64,000 nt of DNA, from the IMG/VR virus record IMGVR_UViG_3300047312_000104, one strand, 5' to 3'. Of this stretch, positions 4,581 through 45,039 are shown one piece after another. The translations under genes and the position numbers were made by a program. Each line of letters begins with the position of its first letter. The first letter of the stretch is position 1. Below the pieces are notes generated by a model. It was not told where the DNA came from, did not search any database, and worked only from the letters and a program-made list of their open reading frames with translations. This stretch comes from an uncultured virus (IMG/VR IMGVR_UViG_3300047312_000104) (taxonomy: Duplodnaviria; Heunggongvirae; Uroviricota; Caudoviricetes).

Positions 4581-4657
4581 TGGTCCGCCGTGAAGGACTT
4601 GCGCCTTCATCCTTCGGGTAAGAACCGAATGCCTCTATCTGTTTAGGCCTACGGCGG
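4581..4657 (-). tRNA. tRNA-Lys(CTT)
   Basis: TTCGG-TTCTTAC-CCGAA, A8, CCA. Confidence 0.88.
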
Positions 4658-4663
4658 AGAAGA

Positions 4664-4744
4664 TGGACATGCCCGGGTGAATTTCACACCTGACTGGCCC
4701 GGTTGCAACGGGTCACCCGAATTTCGAGTTTAGGTTCGAGCATG
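4664..4744 (-). tRNA. tRNA-Cys(GCA), atypical 8/4 fold
   Basis: loop TTGCAAC, U73-CCA, 8-bp acceptor, 4-bp T-stem. Confidence 0.7.
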
Positions 4745-4754
4745 TTAAACTGGT

Positions 4755-5102
4755 TCAAAAAAGAAGCCAAAGGGTCGGGCAATCGGCTGGGTCCTCTGAG
4801 ATCTTTTGGGTGAGCTCTTCACGGATCTTGAGCAACTCCTTGGTCCAATCCCATGGGAAGGCGGGGCTGGGGTCCATCTTGTGAGCCAAAGGGATCTCCT
4901 TCAGCTCGTTCATGGTGAGGTGCCAACAGGTGATCAGGTACTGCCTCGTCTGGGCAGCACACTGGACCTTGTTGGTTTCACCCAAGATGTGAGGGGAGCC
5001 GAGGGTCTGCTTGTCCAACCTCTGGGCTGCCGAGAGCTCGCGGAGTTTGGCCCGGCAGTACTGGATATGGAGGCCTGTGATGGGATTACGGGTTGGGAGC
5101 AT
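4755..5102 (-). CDS. hypothetical protein
   Basis: ATG start MLPTRNP overlapping end of Pth2-like gene. Confidence 0.6.
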   Translation of the reverse strand: MLPTRNPITGLHIQYCRAKLRELSAAQRLDKQTLGSPHILGETNKVQCAAQTRQYLITCWHLTMNELKEIPLAHKMDPSPAFPWDWTKELLKIREELTQKISEDPADCPTLWLLF

Positions 5103-5451
5103 TTGGTGTCCACAATCTATGGTGTCTAAAGAGGCGCCTCGCGGCGCCGGTGATGGGAGCGGTCGCGAAGGCAGTCGCCTGATTTCCGATGTCAGGCTCA
5201 CGGAACAATATGTAGGGGATCTGGGCGGCGTCAAGCCGAGCGGCTTCATCGAGTAGCTGCTGTTCAGAAACAACACCACAGACCACTAATGCACTAGGGT
5301 CCGCGGGGGAGCATTGGGGGCCAGGTACCAGGCCTTTAGAAAGATGAATGCCAGCCTCGTGGGTGGCGTGAGCGGCTTGCACCAGCTGTTGTGCGATAGA
5401 CAGATCTTGTCTGACCAGCACGTAGACGTATAGAGTTTCCTAAGCCTTCAT
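5086..5451 (-). CDS. peptidyl-tRNA hydrolase type 2 (Pth2)-like protein with in-frame TAG at codon 4
   Basis: LYVYVLVRQDL...QLVQAAHA...FREPD...TAFATAP resembles PTH2 family; ATG AAG GCT TAG GAA ACT CTA TAC GTC TAC GTG CTG in frame. Confidence 0.8.
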
Positions 5452-6209
5452 GGTTGCATCCTGATCAGGCGGGCAGGCGCCGTCAAGTACTTACTAGTTG
5501 CCGGGCTGTGCCAGTCGCACCCGGCCAAACGCCGACGCTCTAAAGCTATGTCGTTGTCTATGTTGCGGTATGCGGGGCTGCTCAATAATGTTTCGACGAA
5601 GTTAAACAAGCCAGCCTCCCGTAGTACTGACTTATCGTATTCCGAAAACGCAATCCCAGATCCGGCCGTGTTGAAACGAGGCCTCAGGGCATGAATAAGC
5701 GCCGATTCAATCATACTCATTGTGTGTTCTTGAACTTCGAAATAGAAGACAAACTCCGGCGTAAGTCTTTGAGACTTAGTTTTGATAGCTCCACGGTGAC
5801 CTCGTTGGCGATCTCCTATACTGGTCGTTTTACCTATGTAAGTAATCTCGTTACTATTTATATGGAAATATATGCAAGCAAAAGATCTATAAAGAACATG
5901 CTCACGAACTCTGTCAGCTATGGTCTCAAGACAAGCCGGCACTGGTGGCGTGGCACCCAGATTACGAAGACACGGTATAGGCCACACGTGCCCCCAGGCT
6001 TGATATGTCTTACTCCAAATATCTAACTCTTTTTTAACGTATCGGATACGTCTAGTGCCACCCTTCGTTAATTGAATACTTATAGTAGGTAACCAGTTTT
6101 GACGAGAAAATAAAGAAAATCGCTCAATAGGCATATGTAAATAATCAGCAGCCTGCTCCGCGGTAAGAAGTTGGCCGGACTTCATTAATTTACTATACTT
6201 AGGCAACAT
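5448..6209 (-). CDS. HTH + GIY-YIG-like protein, probable homing endonuclease
   Basis: LLTAEQAADYL excisionase-type HTH; CIYF...YIGKT...R...H...E...FN; AT-rich. Confidence 0.75.
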   Translation of the reverse strand: MLPKYSKLMKSGQLLTAEQAADYLHMPIERFSLFSRQNWLPTISIQLTKGGTRRIRYVKKELDIWSKTYQAWGHVWPIPCLRNLGATPPVPACLETIADRVREHVLYRSFACIYFHINSNEITYIGKTTSIGDRQRGHRGAIKTKSQRLTPEFVFYFEVQEHTMSMIESALIHALRPRFNTAGSGIAFSEYDKSVLREAGLFNFVETLLSSPAYRNIDNDIALERRRLAGCDWHSPATSKYLTAPARLIRMQP

Positions 6210-6226
6210 TAAGCAACCCTTTGAAG

Positions 6227-6299
6227 CGTCTCCGACAGGAGTCGAACCTGCCTAGGGGAGTTTAGAATTCCCTGCCTCATGCCGATCAGCCACGGAGAC
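6227..6299 (-). tRNA. amber suppressor tRNA(CTA), CCA not encoded
   Basis: acceptor GTCTCCG/CGGAGAC-G73, GGGAA-TTCTAAA-CTCCC, T-arm GCAGG-TTCGACT-CCTGT. Confidence 0.85.
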
Positions 6300-6309
6300 A
6301 TGGGTGCCA

Positions 6310-6336
6310 ATCGTAGCCGTGAAGCGGGGAAGTCAA
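6310..6336 (-). promoter_or_regulatory. putative promoter TTGACT-N15-TACGAT for suppressor tRNA unit
   Basis: recurrent motif, 10 nt upstream of tRNA(CTA). Confidence 0.55.
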
Positions 6337-6338
6337 GA

Positions 6339-6415
6339 TGGTCTAGGTGAGAGGATTTGCACCTCCGACATCACGGTCCCAAACCGTGCGCTCTGCTAAA
6401 CTGAGCTACACCCAG
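6339..6415 (-). tRNA. tRNA-Pro(TGG)
   Basis: CACGG-TTTGGGA-CCGTG, CCA. Confidence 0.92.
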
Positions 6416-6422
6416 ATGAAAA

Positions 6423-6496
6423 TGGCGCCCCCACCCGGTGATGCTCCGGGCTTTCCTGATCGACAATCAGGCGTTCTGCTGATGAACCATGAAGGC
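6423..6496 (-). tRNA. tRNA-Asp(GTC)
   Basis: CCTGA-TTGTCGA-TCAGG, G73, CCA. Confidence 0.88.
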
Positions 6497-6500
6497 AAAA

Positions 6501-6575
6501 TGGTGGACCCGGGGAGACTTAAACTCCCAACTTCCTCGGTGCAAGCGAGGCATTCTATATTGGAATTACAGGCCC
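6501..6575 (-). tRNA. tRNA-Ala(TGC)
   Basis: loop CTTGCAC, G3-U70, CCA. Confidence 0.92.
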
Positions 6576-6577
6576 AA

Positions 6578-6694
6578 AACCACGCTTTCTACCCAGGCTA
6601 CTAGACTGGCTCTAAGGCCAGCGGGCGCGTGAACCCGATCGCTGCTGCCAAACTCTTCATCCATTGTAAATGAAGTGGCGGACAAGGCAGCGAA
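6578..6694 (-). ncRNA. unassigned structured RNA between tRNA-Met and tRNA-Ala
   Basis: long hairpin TCGCTGC..GCCA-CTTCAT..ATGAAG..TGGC-A-GCAGCGA plus CACGC/GCGTG-closed domain. Confidence 0.35.
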
Positions 6695-6696
6695 GA

Positions 6697-6773
6697 TGGT
6701 TGCGTGAGGCTGGACTTGCACCAGCGTTTTCGAGCTTATGAGACTCGCGAGATGGCTACTTCTCTACTCCGCA
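6697..6773 (-). tRNA. tRNA-Met(CAT), initiator-like
   Basis: CGAGT-CTCATAA-GCTCG, A11-U24, bulged acceptor, CCA. Confidence 0.82.
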
Positions 6774-6780
6774 GTGAAAA

Positions 6781-6870
6781 TGGAGCCCAGAGGTGGATTT
6801 ACGCCACCGACCTCCGCCTGTTAGGGCGGCGCTCTAGACCCCTTTCGGGACCCTGTTGAGCTACCTGGGC
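6781..6870 (-). tRNA. atypical tRNA-like gene: 6-nt anticodon loop CTAACA, hairpin inserted in D-loop
   Basis: acceptor GCCCAGG/TCTGGGC-U-CCA, D-stem GCTC/GAGC, CCGCC/GGCGG stem, GGTGG/CCACC T-stem. Confidence 0.65.
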
Positions 6871-6915
6871 ATGAGACTGAACTGTAACGAGCGGCACGAG
6901 ACCGCAAATCGAAAA

Positions 6916-6990
6916 TGGTAGGCAGTGAGGGAGTCGCACCCCCGACATCTGGAATGTAAAACCAGCGTTCCGCTGTTGAACTAACCGCCC
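6916..6990 (-). tRNA. tRNA-Val(TAC)
   Basis: loop TTTACAT, CCA. Confidence 0.9.
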
Positions 6991-6993
6991 GTG

Positions 6994-7068
6994 TGGCAGG
7001 CCTGGTAGGAATTGAACCTACACCGCGACGTTCGTAGCGTCGCATCATCTCCATTAGAATACAGGCCT
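6994..7068 (-). tRNA. tRNA-Arg(ACG)
   Basis: CGACG-CTACGAA-CGTCG, CCA. Confidence 0.92.
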
Positions 7069-7153: not shown

Positions 7154-7273
7154 GCCGGCGTTCTACCATTGAACTACACCCTCCGCTTGGCTCTACCGTC
7201 AGTAGTCGGGCCTTGAGTCTAGCGGTCCCTTACGGGCAAGTGGGGCGTCGGGAATCGAACCCGAGTTTCCGGC
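7154..7273 (-). ncRNA. circularly permuted tRNA-like RNA (T-arm first, D-arm last)
   Basis: GCCGG-AAAC-TCGGG-TTCGATT-CCCGA-CGCCC...GGGTG-TA-GTTC-AATGGTA-GAAC-G-CCGGC. Confidence 0.8.
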
Positions 7274-7283
7274 GAGAATTGAA

Positions 7284-7361
7284 TGGTACCCATAGGGGGA
7301 GTCGCACCCCACGTCTTCACCGTGAGAGGGTGACGTCTTATCTAGCTTGGACCATATGGGC
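7284..7361 (-). tRNA. tRNA-Glu(CTC)
   Basis: TCACC-CTCTCAC-GGTGA, CCA. Confidence 0.88.
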
Positions 7362-7368
7362 ATGAAGA

Positions 7369-7437
7369 TGGCTAGGTCGGGCGGACTTTAACCGCCATGT
7401 TCGGTTTTAGGAGAACCAAGACCCATCTGGCGACCTA
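7369..7437 (-). tRNA. tRNA-Arg(CCT), nearly D-armless
   Basis: TTGGTT-CTCCTAA-AACCGA, D region CCAGATGGGTC, G73-CCA. Confidence 0.8.
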
Positions 7438-7443
7438 TCGGGA

Positions 7444-7512
7444 TGGCACGACCGGAAGGACTTTGACCTTCGCGCCTGGGTTTAGAAGACCCTGGACCCA
7501 TCTGGCGATCGT
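7444..7512 (-). tRNA. tRNA-Arg(TCT), nearly D-armless
   Basis: GGGT-CTTCTAA-ACCC, same D region CCAGATGGGTC, G73-CCA. Confidence 0.78.
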
Positions 7513-7521
7513 ATGAAAAAA

Positions 7522-7597
7522 TGGCTGCGGCGGAGGGACTCGAACCCCCTTGCTCCTAGTTAACAGCTAGGTACATGACCAGTTATGTTTCACCGCA
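7522..7597 (-). tRNA. tRNA-Asn(GTT)
   Basis: CCTAG-CTGTTAA-CTAGG, G73, CCA. Confidence 0.92.
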
Positions 7598-7646
7598 ATG
7601 TTGAAGACAAATCAGGGGGCCCCCAGACCATTCCGGAGGTCCCCCG

Positions 7647-30242: not shown

Positions 30243-31766
30243 ACAGCCCTACGCTCCCAATACTCGGCCAGGAGCTGTTCGGTCGGGGCCTGGAACTCGA
30301 TGAACATTCGGCCACGCTCGACATTGGGGACACAGTGGTGCATGATCCGGTAAGCGATCGGGACGTTCCGCATACCGGTCCAGTGTCCTACTTCCTCTAC
30401 CTCAGGGACCGCGCCACAGAACGGACAGGGGATCACCCGCTCTCCGCCATGTCAGCCAGCTCGATCAAGGCCTTGGCGACCTGTCGGGCTGCATATGGGG
30501 GCACACAGATGGTAACCTGTTGGCCTGGCAGCGCGTCGTCATGCGTCTCGATGTACGTGAGGGAAAGGAGCTGGTCGGCACCACGGACAATGACGTGCCA
30601 TCCGTCATGGATGTTCCGGATCGTGCGAGAGGTCGTCACGTCGTAGTGGTCGCATGTATCGTGGTCCACGGTGGGTCCCTATAGTTTGTCGGTGAAGATG
30701 AGATAGCAGGTGCCTATCATCCACGAAATAACTGCAATGGCCGCGATAACTTGGACACGATTACCGGCTCGCCACTGATCGATAAAATCGCCAACCATAC
30801 CGACTAGTCCAGCCACAGCAACGAAGACCACCGGTATACCGACGAACAAGAGAGCTAGTAAATGGCCCATTGGTTACCCTTCCGATTCGTCGTCGTTGAC
30901 CCAGATCCCAACCGCCTTGGAGTTAGTGAGAAGCTTAATCTTGGCGGAGGTGAGCCGGTCGCTGTGCAATCCCCGACACTGGTACTTGTCTACTAACACC
31001 ACATGGACCCCAAGGTTCTCCAGGGCGTCCTTGAGCAAGATAGCCATGGTCGACTTACCCGACTTTCGGAACGGGGACGAGATCGTGATGCTGAACTGCA
31101 TACCACGGAGGGCATCTGGGTACGGGGTCTTGGGCTTGAGTTTAGGTTTCACAGGGAGTCCTTATGGTCTGGAAGGGTAAGGGTAACCGAGCGGCAGTCA
31201 AGGAATCCCGGGTCCTTCATAGCCTGCCTGAGAGCGTCCATGTACTCGGCCCCCTTAGCCGCGATCCTCATCTCCTTTTCAAGTTTAGCCCATTCGTATT
31301 CCCAGCCTTCTGCATAGACCTTCTTGTACTCTGGCGAGTCAGTGTCCACTGGAAGCTCCTTTGGTCGTAGGTTCAGGGAAGCACTTGGGACAGCCGATTA
31401 GAACCGACGCGTAATGGAAACTACCGTCCTCGACTATCCCGTACCCCAGGCAAACCTTACAGTTCTTCTGGGCCCCTGGCCGGATCGGGAGGCCGTCATC
31501 ACCGGTGCTGTAGCGCGGTTCAGAACTCATCTGGGACCCTTCCGAAGAGTTGAGATTCAGGCAAGAGGTGGTTAGGGGCCTTACAGGTATGGAAACAAGG
31601 GACAGTTCCGTTGTTGTGAGCTGCTTCAGCAAGAGCGTAGGCCTGAGGGCACACGTCGCACTTCTGGCCGTCCATTTCCCCGTACCCGCCGCTACACGTG
31701 TTCATGCCACACTTAGGACAAATCACGCAGGGTCCGCACATCTCACAGAGGGACCACCGGAACTCT

Positions 31767-42945: not shown

Positions 42946-43551
42946 TCATGACCGCCCCAGGTATTGTATGGCTGCTAACAAGCGCTGTGGTGAGTCATTA
43001 AACTGCCCTAATCCAGCATTGCAACGGTTACAAAGCAGTCCACGGACTTTACCTGTTGTATGGCAATGATCGACATTCCACCGTCCATGCCGGCCAGGTG
43101 GTTTGTCCGTGCCACATATAGCACACAGACCGTTTTGGCTTGCCAACATAGAATCGAAATCAGCGATAGACAGGTTGTATTTACGGCGTAGCCGTGCTAC
43201 ACGTTGTTCCTCCTTGCGATCCCGATCGTATGAATCTAACGCCACCTTATTGGCCTTACGATAGGCAGCAGCGTAAGAGGCTGCCTTTTCTTTGTGAGCC
43301 TCATAGTAGGCCGCTTTGGCTGCGACCATCTCTTTTTTATGCGTCTTATAGTAAGTGGAGCTAGCAGCAACAATAGCCTCCTTATTAGCCTTATAATAAT
43401 CGGCGTTATAGGCTGCCCTCTCCTCCTTATGAGACTCATAATAGACGGCGGCTCTGACGCTCGCCTCGTTCTTATAAGTCTTACCGCCAGCTAATGTTTT
43501 CCCAGTAGTCATACGTATCACGGGATTATGTTGATGGGGTCCTCGGGTCAA
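42946..43551 (-). CDS. endonuclease VII-domain homing endonuclease
   Basis: YY..HKE repeats then CAICG...VDHCHTTGKVRGLLC..CN.GLG. Confidence 0.9.
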   Translation of the reverse strand: MTRGPHQHNPVIRMTTGKTLAGGKTYKNEASVRAAVYYESHKEERAAYNADYYKANKEAIVAASSTYYKTHKKEMVAAKAAYYEAHKEKAASYAAAYRKANKVALDSYDRDRKEEQRVARLRRKYNLSIADFDSMLASQNGLCAICGTDKPPGRHGRWNVDHCHTTGKVRGLLCNRCNAGLGQFNDSPQRLLAAIQYLGRS

Positions 43552-43557
43552 CCCCTA

Positions 43558-45039
43558 CTAGTACCCATCAACCCTCTTACCGTCCAGAGCACCGCGCATA
43601 GCCGCTACGTGCTCCGGGTCTCTAACGTAGCCGCTTGAGTGTCCGCGCTTAAGTTGTTCAACCTCCAGGAACCTCGAAAAACTATCCGAGTTGGGCGGTT
43701 GGGGTCCCCTGTCTACCTCTTTGCGAGCCCAGTATTCTTTCAGGGCCACGGTAGTGCAGCGCTCCTCGAACTGGGCCCCTGTGGTGTCAGGGTGGGCATC
43801 GGCAATCCCCTCGACCATCTCAGGGTAATCGCACAGGATCCTACGGGCAATCTTGACCCGACCATCGCGGGTCAGGGTCGGCATGGTCATGACCCGATCG
43901 ATCCGGCCAGGGCGAGACACGGCCCCGTTCTCGATCTTGGCCAGCGCAGGGTCCACCTTGTCCAAATGGTTGGTGGTGATGACCAGGAAGATCCCGTTGG
44001 GGTTACCGACGCCCTGGATCGTGTTGAGCAAGCAGTCGAACGAGAGCCCCCCACCCTTCTTATCCAGCACGTTTGAGCGACCTTCGAACACCGCATCGAT
44101 GTCCTCAATGAGAACGATACAGGGGGCACAGTTGCAGATCTTGGCCCACGCCAGGTCCATGTCCCGGTTGGTCATCGTGGCGATGTCGAGGACCAGAATG
44201 GGGATCCCGAGATCCTGCCCAAGGGCCCTCACGAGAGAGCTCTTACCGGTCCCAGGGGGCCCAGTGAGGAGCCATCCACGGCGCCACATGATCTTACGTT
44301 CTTGGTACCAGGCCTTGGACTTGAGCCACCTGCGCGCTTCCTCTACCGCTTCATCGACTTCAGGTGAGAGGGCGAGGCGTTCCATCGGGGCCCCAGCCTC
44401 CAATGGTTCCCCGAGATCGTCATGGGTCCACCCGATCGGATGAGAGGACCTGGAGTCTGCACTAGGGACATCAGTGGTGGCGGCCGGTGGATCGTGGGGA
44501 TCGTGGTCGCCTGTCATCCCAAAGGTCCCCTGGTACCGCTGGACGTAGAAGCGGCTCACGTGCCCGAGTTGTTCCAACCGCGAGTTGTACCCTTGGAGAC
44601 AGTCGAGGATGAACTGCTTGGCACAGAAGGTCCCACGGATGAACGTGATGGACATACGCTCGATCGAGGGCGCGTGGCCGTTCGGGGGACCGCCTTTGTG
44701 CTCTTCTCCGTAGCTGACCAGGATCGGCCGCCATCCCTTCCAGAACACCACAGCTTTCTTTCCGATTACCTCTTTGGCCACCACCTGGGACTTGGAGAGG
44801 GGCCGGACCCACACGGGGCACCCACTGATGTTCCAGAACGCACCTCTCGACACCTTGAGGTGCTCCCAGCAGTACGTAGCAATGGCAGGCGGGATCCACG
44901 AGCCCTCGACCGATACCCTGATGACCATGAGGCCCAGGAGACGATTCAGGAGGGATTTGACGTGGGTCCAGCAGGCAGTCACTAGCCCGGTCCCGAGGAC
45001 CCCAAAGGTTACGAGGGTCGTGGGGGAGATGGCGAACAT
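43558..45039 (-). CDS. BCS1-like AAA+ ATPase
   Basis: WY....I.WRRGWLLTGPPGTGKSS, IVLIEDID, TTNH..K.DPAL, RPGRID. Confidence 0.9.
   Translation of the reverse strand: MFAISPTTLVTFGVLGTGLVTACWTHVKSLLNRLLGLMVIRVSVEGSWIPPAIATYCWEHLKVSRGAFWNISGCPVWVRPLSKSQVVAKEVIGKKAVVFWKGWRPILVSYGEEHKGGPPNGHAPSIERMSITFIRGTFCAKQFILDCLQGYNSRLEQLGHVSRFYVQRYQGTFGMTGDHDPHDPPAATTDVPSADSRSSHPIGWTHDDLGEPLEAGAPMERLALSPEVDEAVEEARRWLKSKAWYQERKIMWRRGWLLTGPPGTGKSSLVRALGQDLGIPILVLDIATMTNRDMDLAWAKICNCAPCIVLIEDIDAVFEGRSNVLDKKGGGLSFDCLLNTIQGVGNPNGIFLVITTNHLDKVDPALAKIENGAVSRPGRIDRVMTMPTLTRDGRVKIARRILCDYPEMVEGIADAHPDTTGAQFEERCTTVALKEYWARKEVDRGPQPPNSDSFSRFLEVEQLKRGHSSGYVRDPEHVAAMRGALDGKRVDGY

Follow-up and report, generated by a model that had tools for sequence, protein, structure and literature searches.

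A stop codon inside a Pth2-like gene

The 64,000-nucleotide (64-kb) stretch of the uncultured virus IMGVR_UViG_3300047312_000104, the whole of which is called the window here, carries on its minus strand a small Pth2-like gene (5086–5451) with TAG as its fourth codon. Upstream lies a tRNA gene with the anticodon CUA, that of an amber suppressor. The gene begins with ATG (5451–5449), AAG, GCT and TAG (5442–5440), and continues with GAA ACT CTA TAC GTC TAC GTG, to give MKA*ETLYVYVLVRQDL. The ATG, the TAG and the Pth2-like open reading frame (ORF) are all in one frame. The leader (5440–5451), which we consider the putative gate, is followed by an ORF body of 117 codons and a TAA stop (5086–5439, with TAA at 5088–5086), and translation through the TAG would yield 121 residues. 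The leader ATG overlaps the TGA stop of the preceding ORF (ATGA), and a Shine–Dalgarno-like AGGA (5459–5462, minus strand) lies 7 nucleotides (nt) before it. A preliminary description of this DNA had given the same leader, frame and overlap, and all of its coordinates were exact.

The tRNA(CUA) gene (6226–6299, minus strand) was called by both ARAGORN and the Rfam model RF00005. It lies 17 bases upstream of an ORF of 253 amino acids (5448–6209, minus strand), which separates it from the Pth2-like gene. This order was also as first described. The match of the intervening ORF to GIY-YIG was weak (Pfam 20.5 bits against a cut-off of 22.6; E 5.9e-4). The same ORF matched endonuclease families of PHROGs (E 0.006–0.008), and it probably encodes a homing endonuclease that has inserted itself into the cassette. 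In the relatives described below, the suppressor tRNA was 90–800 nt from the gene, without an intervening GIY-YIG-like ORF.

An erroneous TAG would have undone the initial observation. The ATG and the TAG were covered without differences by contigs of two DNA runs from two studies (X1, 5421–5624, and X2, 5309–5459), one of which may be the source sample, and the TAG recurs in relatives.

Other ways of passing or using the stop were considered. Frameshifting or hopping was rejected, as a single frame is involved and no matching codons flank the TAG. The RNA fold of 5390–5500 was no better than those of shuffled sequences (z -0.05), and an attenuator-type structure around the leader was rejected. 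The motif TTGACG (5486–5481), 17 nt, CAGGAT (5463–5458) is present on the minus strand as reported, and had been read as a promoter; a second promoter motif had been assigned to the tRNA gene. A consensus promoter scan of 4600–7000 gave 3 sites, with 1.6 expected, and none was at either position, so neither promoter reading was retained. The CAGGAT element is better read as containing the ribosome-binding AGGA than as a -10 box.

Among minus-strand open frames of at least 80 codons in the window, an ATG no more than 6 codons before the preceding stop was found in 1 of 33 frames with TAG, 6 of 84 with TGA and 1 of 40 with TAA. The pattern was thus within chance in the window alone, and its significance rests on the relatives.

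Conservation of the leader

Loci were collected from IMG/VR with a family profile; 80 were fetched and 7 duplicates dropped, leaving 73 distinct loci. The first in-frame stop before the conserved strand was TAG in 47 of them, and 39 contained an amber leader (ATG, zero to six sense codons and an in-frame TAG). A single sense codon was commonest (25 loci), followed by three codons (7 loci) and two (3 loci); 2 loci had no sense codon, and leaders of four and of six sense codons occurred once each. Before open frames of the same loci, TAG with an ATG within 7 codons occurred at a background of about 2.5%, against which 39 of 73 gave a nominal binomial P of 5e-43. This value overstates the case, because the loci are related.

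Cultured phages gave the same picture. A tblastn search found 38 records, of which 10 were examined, and 9 had the leader: MK* in XacN1 and RAS14, MKK* in Xoo-sp13, ML* in RsoM2USA and Arash, MT* in ME3, MTH* in pEa_SNUABM_19, MSH* in fHe-Yen9-04 and MAQ* in CBB. The tenth, RaK2, had an ordinary ATG start and no leader. The leader was also present in 9 of 14 informative further metagenome loci, after exclusion of five on contigs already seen, one partial match and one running off its contig.

In a family tree of the protein cores, the leader occurred on both sides of the midpoint root and in several supported clades. Parsimony gave 11 changes of this trait, and supported branches force at least 4. 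An in-frame stop near the start was therefore kept across divergent homologues, with the frame after it open and conserved, as is looked for in read-through.

The leader ATG was preceded by a Shine–Dalgarno-like motif in 27 of the 39 loci. The base after the TAG was A in 27, G in 9, C in 3 and T in none (P 6e-7 versus composition); in Escherichia coli, a purine after the stop favours suppression.

In XacN1, Xoo-sp13, RAS14, L027 and L048 (locus labels L009, L010, L013, L027 and L048), the Pth2 domain follows a helical domain of about 180 residues in one fused protein. The early stop in these forms was at the start of the whole protein, preceding the extra N-terminal domain. The position of the stop is thus fixed relative to the start codon and not to the fold, and it lies in a variable N-terminal tail. 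The residues directly after the TAG were conserved as protein in the fused forms (T-I/L-N/K..K.T.Q), including members without an internal Met (RAS14 and L050).

One locus, L025 (the same as L005; 5983–6000), had TAG as its first upstream stop and a tRNA(CUA) 299 nt upstream; the nearby ATG was out of frame, and no canonical start followed the TAG. Either a frameshift introduced in sequencing or a variant form of the leader could account for this arrangement.

Linkage to suppressor tRNAs and exchange of the stop codon

The preliminary description had proposed that relatives be searched for an early stop together with a suppressor tRNA. Both recurred: of the 73 loci, 39 had the leader and 46 had a tRNA(CUA) no more than 6 kb away. 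These tRNA genes, 47 in all, were without exception on the strand of the Pth2-like gene, mostly within 1.3 kb of it. They made up 47 of the 276 tRNAs in these loci. Genome-wide, tRNA(CUA) was 1 of 26–29 tRNAs in each of CBB, fHe-Yen9-04, Xoo-sp13 and RAS14. Where a locus had a single tRNA (24 loci), it was CUA in 17 and UCA in 2, so that a suppressor was present in 19 of 24.

A tRNA(CUA) was present in 8 of the 9 cultured amber-leader phages, those of XacN1 and RsoM2USA being taken from their papers; the ninth, pEa_SNUABM_19, was outside the whole-genome scan. None was found among the 8 tRNAs of RaK2, which has no leader. Five amber-leader IMG/VR records without a tRNA(CUA) within 6 kb were checked, and it was found elsewhere in the record in 4.

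The suppressors were of many kinds. In 51 distinct tRNA(CUA) sequences, base 73 was A, G, U or C, and arm lengths differed. The CCA end was encoded in 31 copies and absent in 24 of 55, compared with 80 of 277 other tRNAs lacking it. With so many kinds of tRNA acting at a variable N-terminal site, the inserted residue seems not to matter, and its identity is probably irrelevant. Insertion of pyrrolysine or selenocysteine was rejected on the diversity of the tRNAs and the independence of the stop from the fold, pylS and SECIS elements not having been searched for; the labels 'Pyl' and 'SeC' are ARAGORN names for the anticodons.

A few loci had other stops and other suppressors. In L063, AGGAGG and 5 nt precede ATG GTC TTC ACG TGA (MVFT-TGA), which shares the frame of the conserved strand; the end of a tRNA(UCA) lies about 13 nt before the leader ATG. 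L033 had a nine-codon leader ending in TGA together with a tRNA(UCA) (Rfam 63.7 bits), and L051 an MKRPDT-TAA leader together with a tRNA(UUA) (Rfam 52.2 bits). In L036, a tRNA(UUA) was accompanied by TAA as the first upstream stop, but an ordinary start followed that stop. In no locus was a UCA or UUA tRNA combined with a different first stop. This natural exchange of stop codon and anticodon is the strongest single result of the comparison.

A second architecture was found in L047, L055, L065, L068, L071, L075–L078, L080 and L088, most of which had an ordinary ATG start. The tRNA(CUA) in these was on the same strand, 300–800 nt after the gene start and immediately downstream of the gene. TAG was the first upstream stop in three of them, and most of the loci fell in one supported clade. 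The persistence of the link without a gate suggests that the job of the protein concerns the suppressor or its consequences.

The Pth2-like protein

A profile built from 72 family sequences matched solved Pth2 structures, 24bt_A (E 1.5e-7) and 2zv3_A (E 4e-7) as well as 1rzw_A, 1q7s_A, 1rlk_A and 1wn2_A. The AlphaFold model of the product had a predicted local distance difference test (pLDDT) of 91.8 and a predicted template modelling score (pTM) of 0.85. The Foldseek matches to the Protein Data Bank listed with E no greater than 0.001 were chains of the Pth2 family only, with template modelling (TM) scores of 0.6–0.76; those to 2zv3, 1wn2, 3erj, 1xty and 1q7s were about 0.7.

Profile alignment showed the VQxxHA and TA..P motifs to be common to the family and Pth2. 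Near-invariant residues of the family were R14, D16, Q22, Q25, H28, E85, P86, D87 and T93. From the profile and the predicted structure, we take the product to be a divergent protein of the Pth2 fold. The initial assignment to Pth2, which Pfam alone left below threshold, was thus borne out by the family profile and the model.

The suppressor tRNA of the window

The tRNA(CUA) scored 38.4 bits with RF00005 (cut-off 29). Its acceptor stem has the pair G1-C72, and base 73 is G. It was identical to the 18 other tRNAs of the window at no more than 47 of 74 positions, which excludes a recent copy of any of them.

Initiator tRNAs have an unpaired 1-72 position and three G-C pairs next to the anticodon loop. 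As G1-C72 is paired and the three G-C pairs are missing, an initiator-type tRNA starting translation at UAG was rejected.

Suppressor-dependent translation and its alternatives

The conservation of the leader, the co-occurrence of the tRNA and the covariation of stop and anticodon support what had been proposed at the outset, that synthesis of the hydrolase-like protein depends on the suppressor. On this comparison, translation of the Pth2-like gene is very probably gated by the suppressor tRNA of the phage. The gene and the tRNA appear to be a cassette conserved among phages with many tRNA genes, mostly jumbo phages, which are otherwise of standard genetic code. The architecture, its conservation, the tRNA co-occurrence, the covariation and the Pth2 fold were observed here; we infer from them that read-through occurs.

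Several observations weigh against this. The first upstream stop was other than TAG in 26 of the 73 loci, and in 8 more TAG was present without an in-frame ATG leader. Only 23 of the 39 amber-leader loci had a tRNA(CUA) within 6 kb. The closest relative, G001, had none among 20 tRNAs in a record 74% complete. The tRNA(UCA) of L063 was called by ARAGORN only and was not listed by Rfam at the gathering score. A tRNA(CUA) stood beside the gene in 16 of the 26 loci with a different first stop, which indicated that the link between tRNA and gene needs no gate and that the tRNA may have other work. No RNA run carrying the window was among those listed.

The tRNA of the window itself has an A.C mismatch in the lowest pair of the anticodon stem, and its Rfam score was the lowest of the three obtained on searching 6150–6520. 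It is alone among the 19 tRNAs of the window in lacking an encoded CCA. Its maturation would then need a CCA-adding enzyme, which would add a further layer to the gate.

The identity of the protein is also open to objection. Pfam PTH2 (PF01981) gave 18.6 bits for the 121-residue product, below the cut-off of 23 (E 0.0022), with residues 9–99 aligned to profile positions 3–99 of 115. The catalytic residues of canonical Pth2 are a Lys before the QxxHA motif, and an Asp and a Thr in the DAG.T loop. In the hidden Markov model alignment, the 'GK' that precedes VQxxHA in Pth2 fell on Q-Q. The 'DAG.T' loop was 4 residues shorter than in Pth2, and its D aligned with E85 of E-P-D. Because of the Q-Q and the shorter loop, hydrolase activity is likely but not assured.

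The TAG might instead be a true stop, with the tiny upstream ORF incidental or regulatory (for example, loading ribosomes through coupling with the GIY-YIG gene) and the Pth2-like protein re-initiated at the in-frame GTG (5419–5421, minus strand). This GTG, at residue 11, is the sole canonical alternative start. It is 7 codons past the TAG and would give an ORF of 111 amino acids. Post-stop starts were in fact chosen by the GenBank annotators of ME3, XacN1 and Xoo-sp13, and the pattern in the window by itself could be due to chance, as noted above. A canonical start was present within 15 codons of the TAG in 13 of the 39 amber-leader loci, and these, with the GTG of the window, suggested that some protein could start downstream.

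The remaining 26 loci, however, had no ATG, GTG or TTG within 15 codons of the TAG; 4 had none in the whole ORF, and the other 22 had their first beyond that distance. The codon following the stop varied widely (ATT, AAC, ATC, CTA, GAA, ACT, GTT and others), with no common re-initiation codon. The preliminary description had objected to the GTG that it would cut into the first beta-strand and lacks a well-spaced ribosome-binding site. We agree: strand 1 of the model spans residues 8–14, three of which would be lost, and no purine-rich motif precedes the GTG. Re-initiation would also leave unexplained the near-constant TAG, its change with the suppressor anticodon, and the adjoining tRNA. We consider a true stop improbable.

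Alternatively, the leader could be a minigene like lambda bar, in which termination or peptidyl-tRNA drop-off senses the activity of release factor or of Pth, and read-through is a by-product. ATG, one sense codon and a stop is the form of minigene most prone to drop-off, and 25 of the 39 leaders have it; moreover, the downstream gene is Pth-like. But a free-standing minigene has no need of the arrangement seen here, in which the stop is always in frame with the conserved ORF and runs straight into it. There was no conservation of the last sense codon (22 different codons in 39 loci), and the covariation with the suppressor anticodon points to decoding. A leader that acts chiefly as a minigene is less probable still. 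Minigene behavior can coexist with suppressor gating as its 'off' state; the drop-off previously suggested for the unsuppressed leader is a plausible analogy only.

General reassignment of TAG, as in genetic code 15, would make this gene one of many recoded ones. The phage does have a tRNA(CUA), and TAG was the rarest stop, ending 4 of 61 minus-strand ORFs of at least 100 amino acids. Under code 11, however, ORFs of this size already spanned 75% of the window, and the Pth2-like gene was the sole case of an ATG-led early TAG on the coding strand of the 64 kb. An early TAG was present in three more frames of the minus strand (upstream starts at 30260, 37996 and 39653), with TTG or GTG as the upstream codon. 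In two of them an ATG start closely follows the TAG, and one of these starts has a visible ribosome-binding motif. We read these three frames as incidental. In addition, one ORF ends in TAG TAG, and cultured relatives are annotated in the standard code, XacN1 with 18 amber stops according to its paper. The window uses the standard code apart from the Pth2-like gene, and reassignment is very hard to sustain.

A decaying pseudogene, with a nonsense mutation tolerated through a chance suppressor, might account for the single in-frame stop and for the absence of the gene from the annotation of several GenBank records, but it is just as hard to reconcile with a stop at codons 2–8 in 39 loci whose proteins differ by 40–70%, and with a body that is open, retains the conserved motifs and gives a confident model.

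Proposed mechanism

In suppressor-gated translation, ribosomes would begin at ATG 5451 and meet UAG as the fourth codon, which would be decoded by the tRNA(CUA) of the phage itself. Full-length protein would require this tRNA to be transcribed, processed, provided with a CCA end and charged, and the charged tRNA would have to compete with release factor 1 at codon 4. On failure of suppression only a tripeptide would be made, at almost no cost. A stop so near the start would thus make failure cheap. Judging from work on minigenes, it may also slow termination in favor of the tRNA. Read-through may serve to make the level of the hydrolase-like protein follow suppressor activity, or else reflect how suppression and termination are balanced.

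A further, tentative possibility, which we rate below an even chance, is that the tRNA, the leader and the Pth2-like protein together make up a self-contained homeostat, the leader reporting within infected cells the balance of suppression against termination. The output would be an enzyme acting on the ester bond at the 3' ends of tRNAs. It would clear peptidyl-tRNAs arising at misread or slowly terminated stops or, alternatively, discharge the suppressor itself in negative feedback. If so, the 'orphan' suppressor tRNAs of standard-code jumbo phages would mainly be the key to this lock, and the key would have been re-cut (UAG/CUA, UGA/UCA and UAA/UUA) without a change of the device.

Further genes near the cassette and annotation

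The helical domain of the fused proteins also occurred as a separate gene (L050 4495 and L138 2983), each with its own amber leader. Fused or separate, the domain had an amber leader in every case seen. It had no Pfam match. A model built from four sequences (pLDDT 79.8) gave weak Foldseek matches to 'tRNA processing enzyme' chains 3wfr and 3wfo (E 4.5e-3, TMq 0.6), followed by weak matches to HD-domain phosphohydrolases. The window had no homologue of this domain (tblastn best E 0.26).

In L073, a 134-codon ORF (7236–7640; MS*NPFSKWRW...) without a Pfam match had a Shine–Dalgarno-like motif followed by ATG, one codon and TAG. It is 1.2 kb from the gated Pth2-like gene and adjoins the tRNA(CUA), and is possibly a further gated gene.

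In L094 (5218–5985), an amber-leader Pth2-like N-terminus runs into a protein with HNH and NUMOD3 domains (by Pfam, in L094 alone), and this fusion adjoins a second, intact amber-leader Pth2-like gene. Similar frames were present in L095 (1715) and L097 (4201). Homing-endonuclease-like genes were thus seen in or beside the cassette in the window, L094, L095 and L097.

A transfer-messenger RNA (tmRNA) gene lay within a few kb of the Pth2-like gene in L051 (3076–3493; Rfam 132.7 bits) and L037 (2475–2850; ARAGORN). The tmRNA is another ribosome-rescue element in the neighborhood of this gene.

The GenBank annotation of the gene (records L009–L017) was consistently at fault. The gene was unannotated in RsoM2USA, pEa_SNUABM_19 and fHe-Yen9-04, truncated in ME3 (GTG start), CBB, RAS14 and Arash, and given an internal ATG start in XacN1 and Xoo-sp13. 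In Arash, a piece of 51 amino acids was named peptidyl-tRNA hydrolase. The tRNA(CUA) was annotated as tRNA-Phe in Arash and tRNA-OTHER in ME3. The early-stop leader explains this systematic error for the Pth2-like gene.

The window (GC 51–62%) also encodes tail and head-decoration proteins and endonuclease VII, and the tRNA genes called by ARAGORN, 19 in number, all lie on its minus strand. At the DNA level, comparison with 50,697 phage records gave no match for the tail gene and only a tRNA-Pro match for 4700–6500.

The double amber stop, tandem TAG TAG, is found at a junction of two ORFs (43552–43560, minus strand). It ends the ORF at 43558–45039, which encodes an ATPase-like protein of 493 amino acids. 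The endonuclease VII ORF (42946–43551) starts three bases past the tandem stops, in frame with them. A double amber in a phage that carries a suppressor could guard against a fused product; this is a single case and may be chance.

At 1132–1443 there are four tandem tRNAs with Leu anticodons (TAA, CAA, GAG and TAG), only 76–77 nt long. This length leaves no long variable arm, which bacterial tRNA-Leu normally has.

Comparison with known systems

PTH2 genes have been noted in jumbo phages (Iyer et al., PMC7824862), and the consulted portion of that paper mentions neither a stop-codon leader nor a link to suppressors. The leader on PTH2 is likewise unmentioned in the portions consulted of the XacN1 and RsoM2USA papers, a jumbo-phage survey and the recoding papers. 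No description of such a leader on PTH2 genes of phages came up in a full-text literature search, supplements being outside its scope. Both read-through of the programmed kind and suppressor tRNAs in phages have precedents. What appears new is the proposed single-gene, start-proximal gate with a linked suppressor that co-varies with the stop.

The protein shares the fold and the VQxxHA and TA..P motifs of Pth2. Unlike canonical Pth2, it belongs to a divergent subfamily below the Pfam threshold, with a shorter loop and Q where GK stands.

The gene for release factor 2, prfB, is autoregulated through an early in-frame UGA, which is passed by a +1 frameshift and is read by the product itself. Both systems involve a translation-related gene with an early in-frame stop, the output of which depends on termination there, so that the coding sequence contains its own sensor. 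In the phage gene, on the other hand, the frame is unchanged, a tRNA would do the decoding, and the product is Pth2-like.

Minigenes of the lambda bar type consist of a Shine–Dalgarno sequence, AUG, one or two sense codons and a stop; they are free-standing, sequester tRNA, are tied to Pth and become toxic when Pth is limiting. The leader of the window (AGGA, 7 nt, ATG AAG GCT TAG) resembles them, as does its connection with Pth. It differs in the conserved ORF in frame after the stop and in the unconserved last sense codon.

In recoded phages, a tRNA(CUA) reads in-frame TAG as Gln in a standard-code host, and this has been proposed to control the timing of gene translation (Borges et al., 10.1101/2021.08.26.457843). 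In those phages, the TAGs are scattered through many genes, mostly late or lysis genes, and coding density under code 11 is low. The present phages also encode a tRNA(CUA) for an in-frame TAG. They differ from code-15 phages in that one small gene is concerned, with one stop at codons 2–8 and the rest in standard code, and in that TAG, TGA and TAA can each serve as the stop, the corresponding tRNA being encoded in physical linkage with the gene.

The authors of the XacN1 paper state that they were unable to identify targets of its suppressor tRNAs; they had looked past gene ends. The target stop proposed here sits instead at the beginning of a gene. It would provide a natural target for the puzzling suppressor tRNAs of standard-code phages. 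The linkage of the Pth2-like gene to suppressors, gated or not, suggests an unrecognized tie between nonsense suppression and the hydrolysis of tRNA 3'-end esters in infection.

Another parallel is engineered. In a synthetic feedforward loop (PMC7969014), AND-type control with low leak is obtained by placing amber codons in a gene and expressing a suppressor tRNA alongside it. The present system would be a counterpart from nature that unites tRNA and gated gene in a single cassette: a compact AND-gate of a tRNA and a start-proximal stop, like those built by hand by synthetic biologists, and accompanied by a natural swap of all three stop codons.

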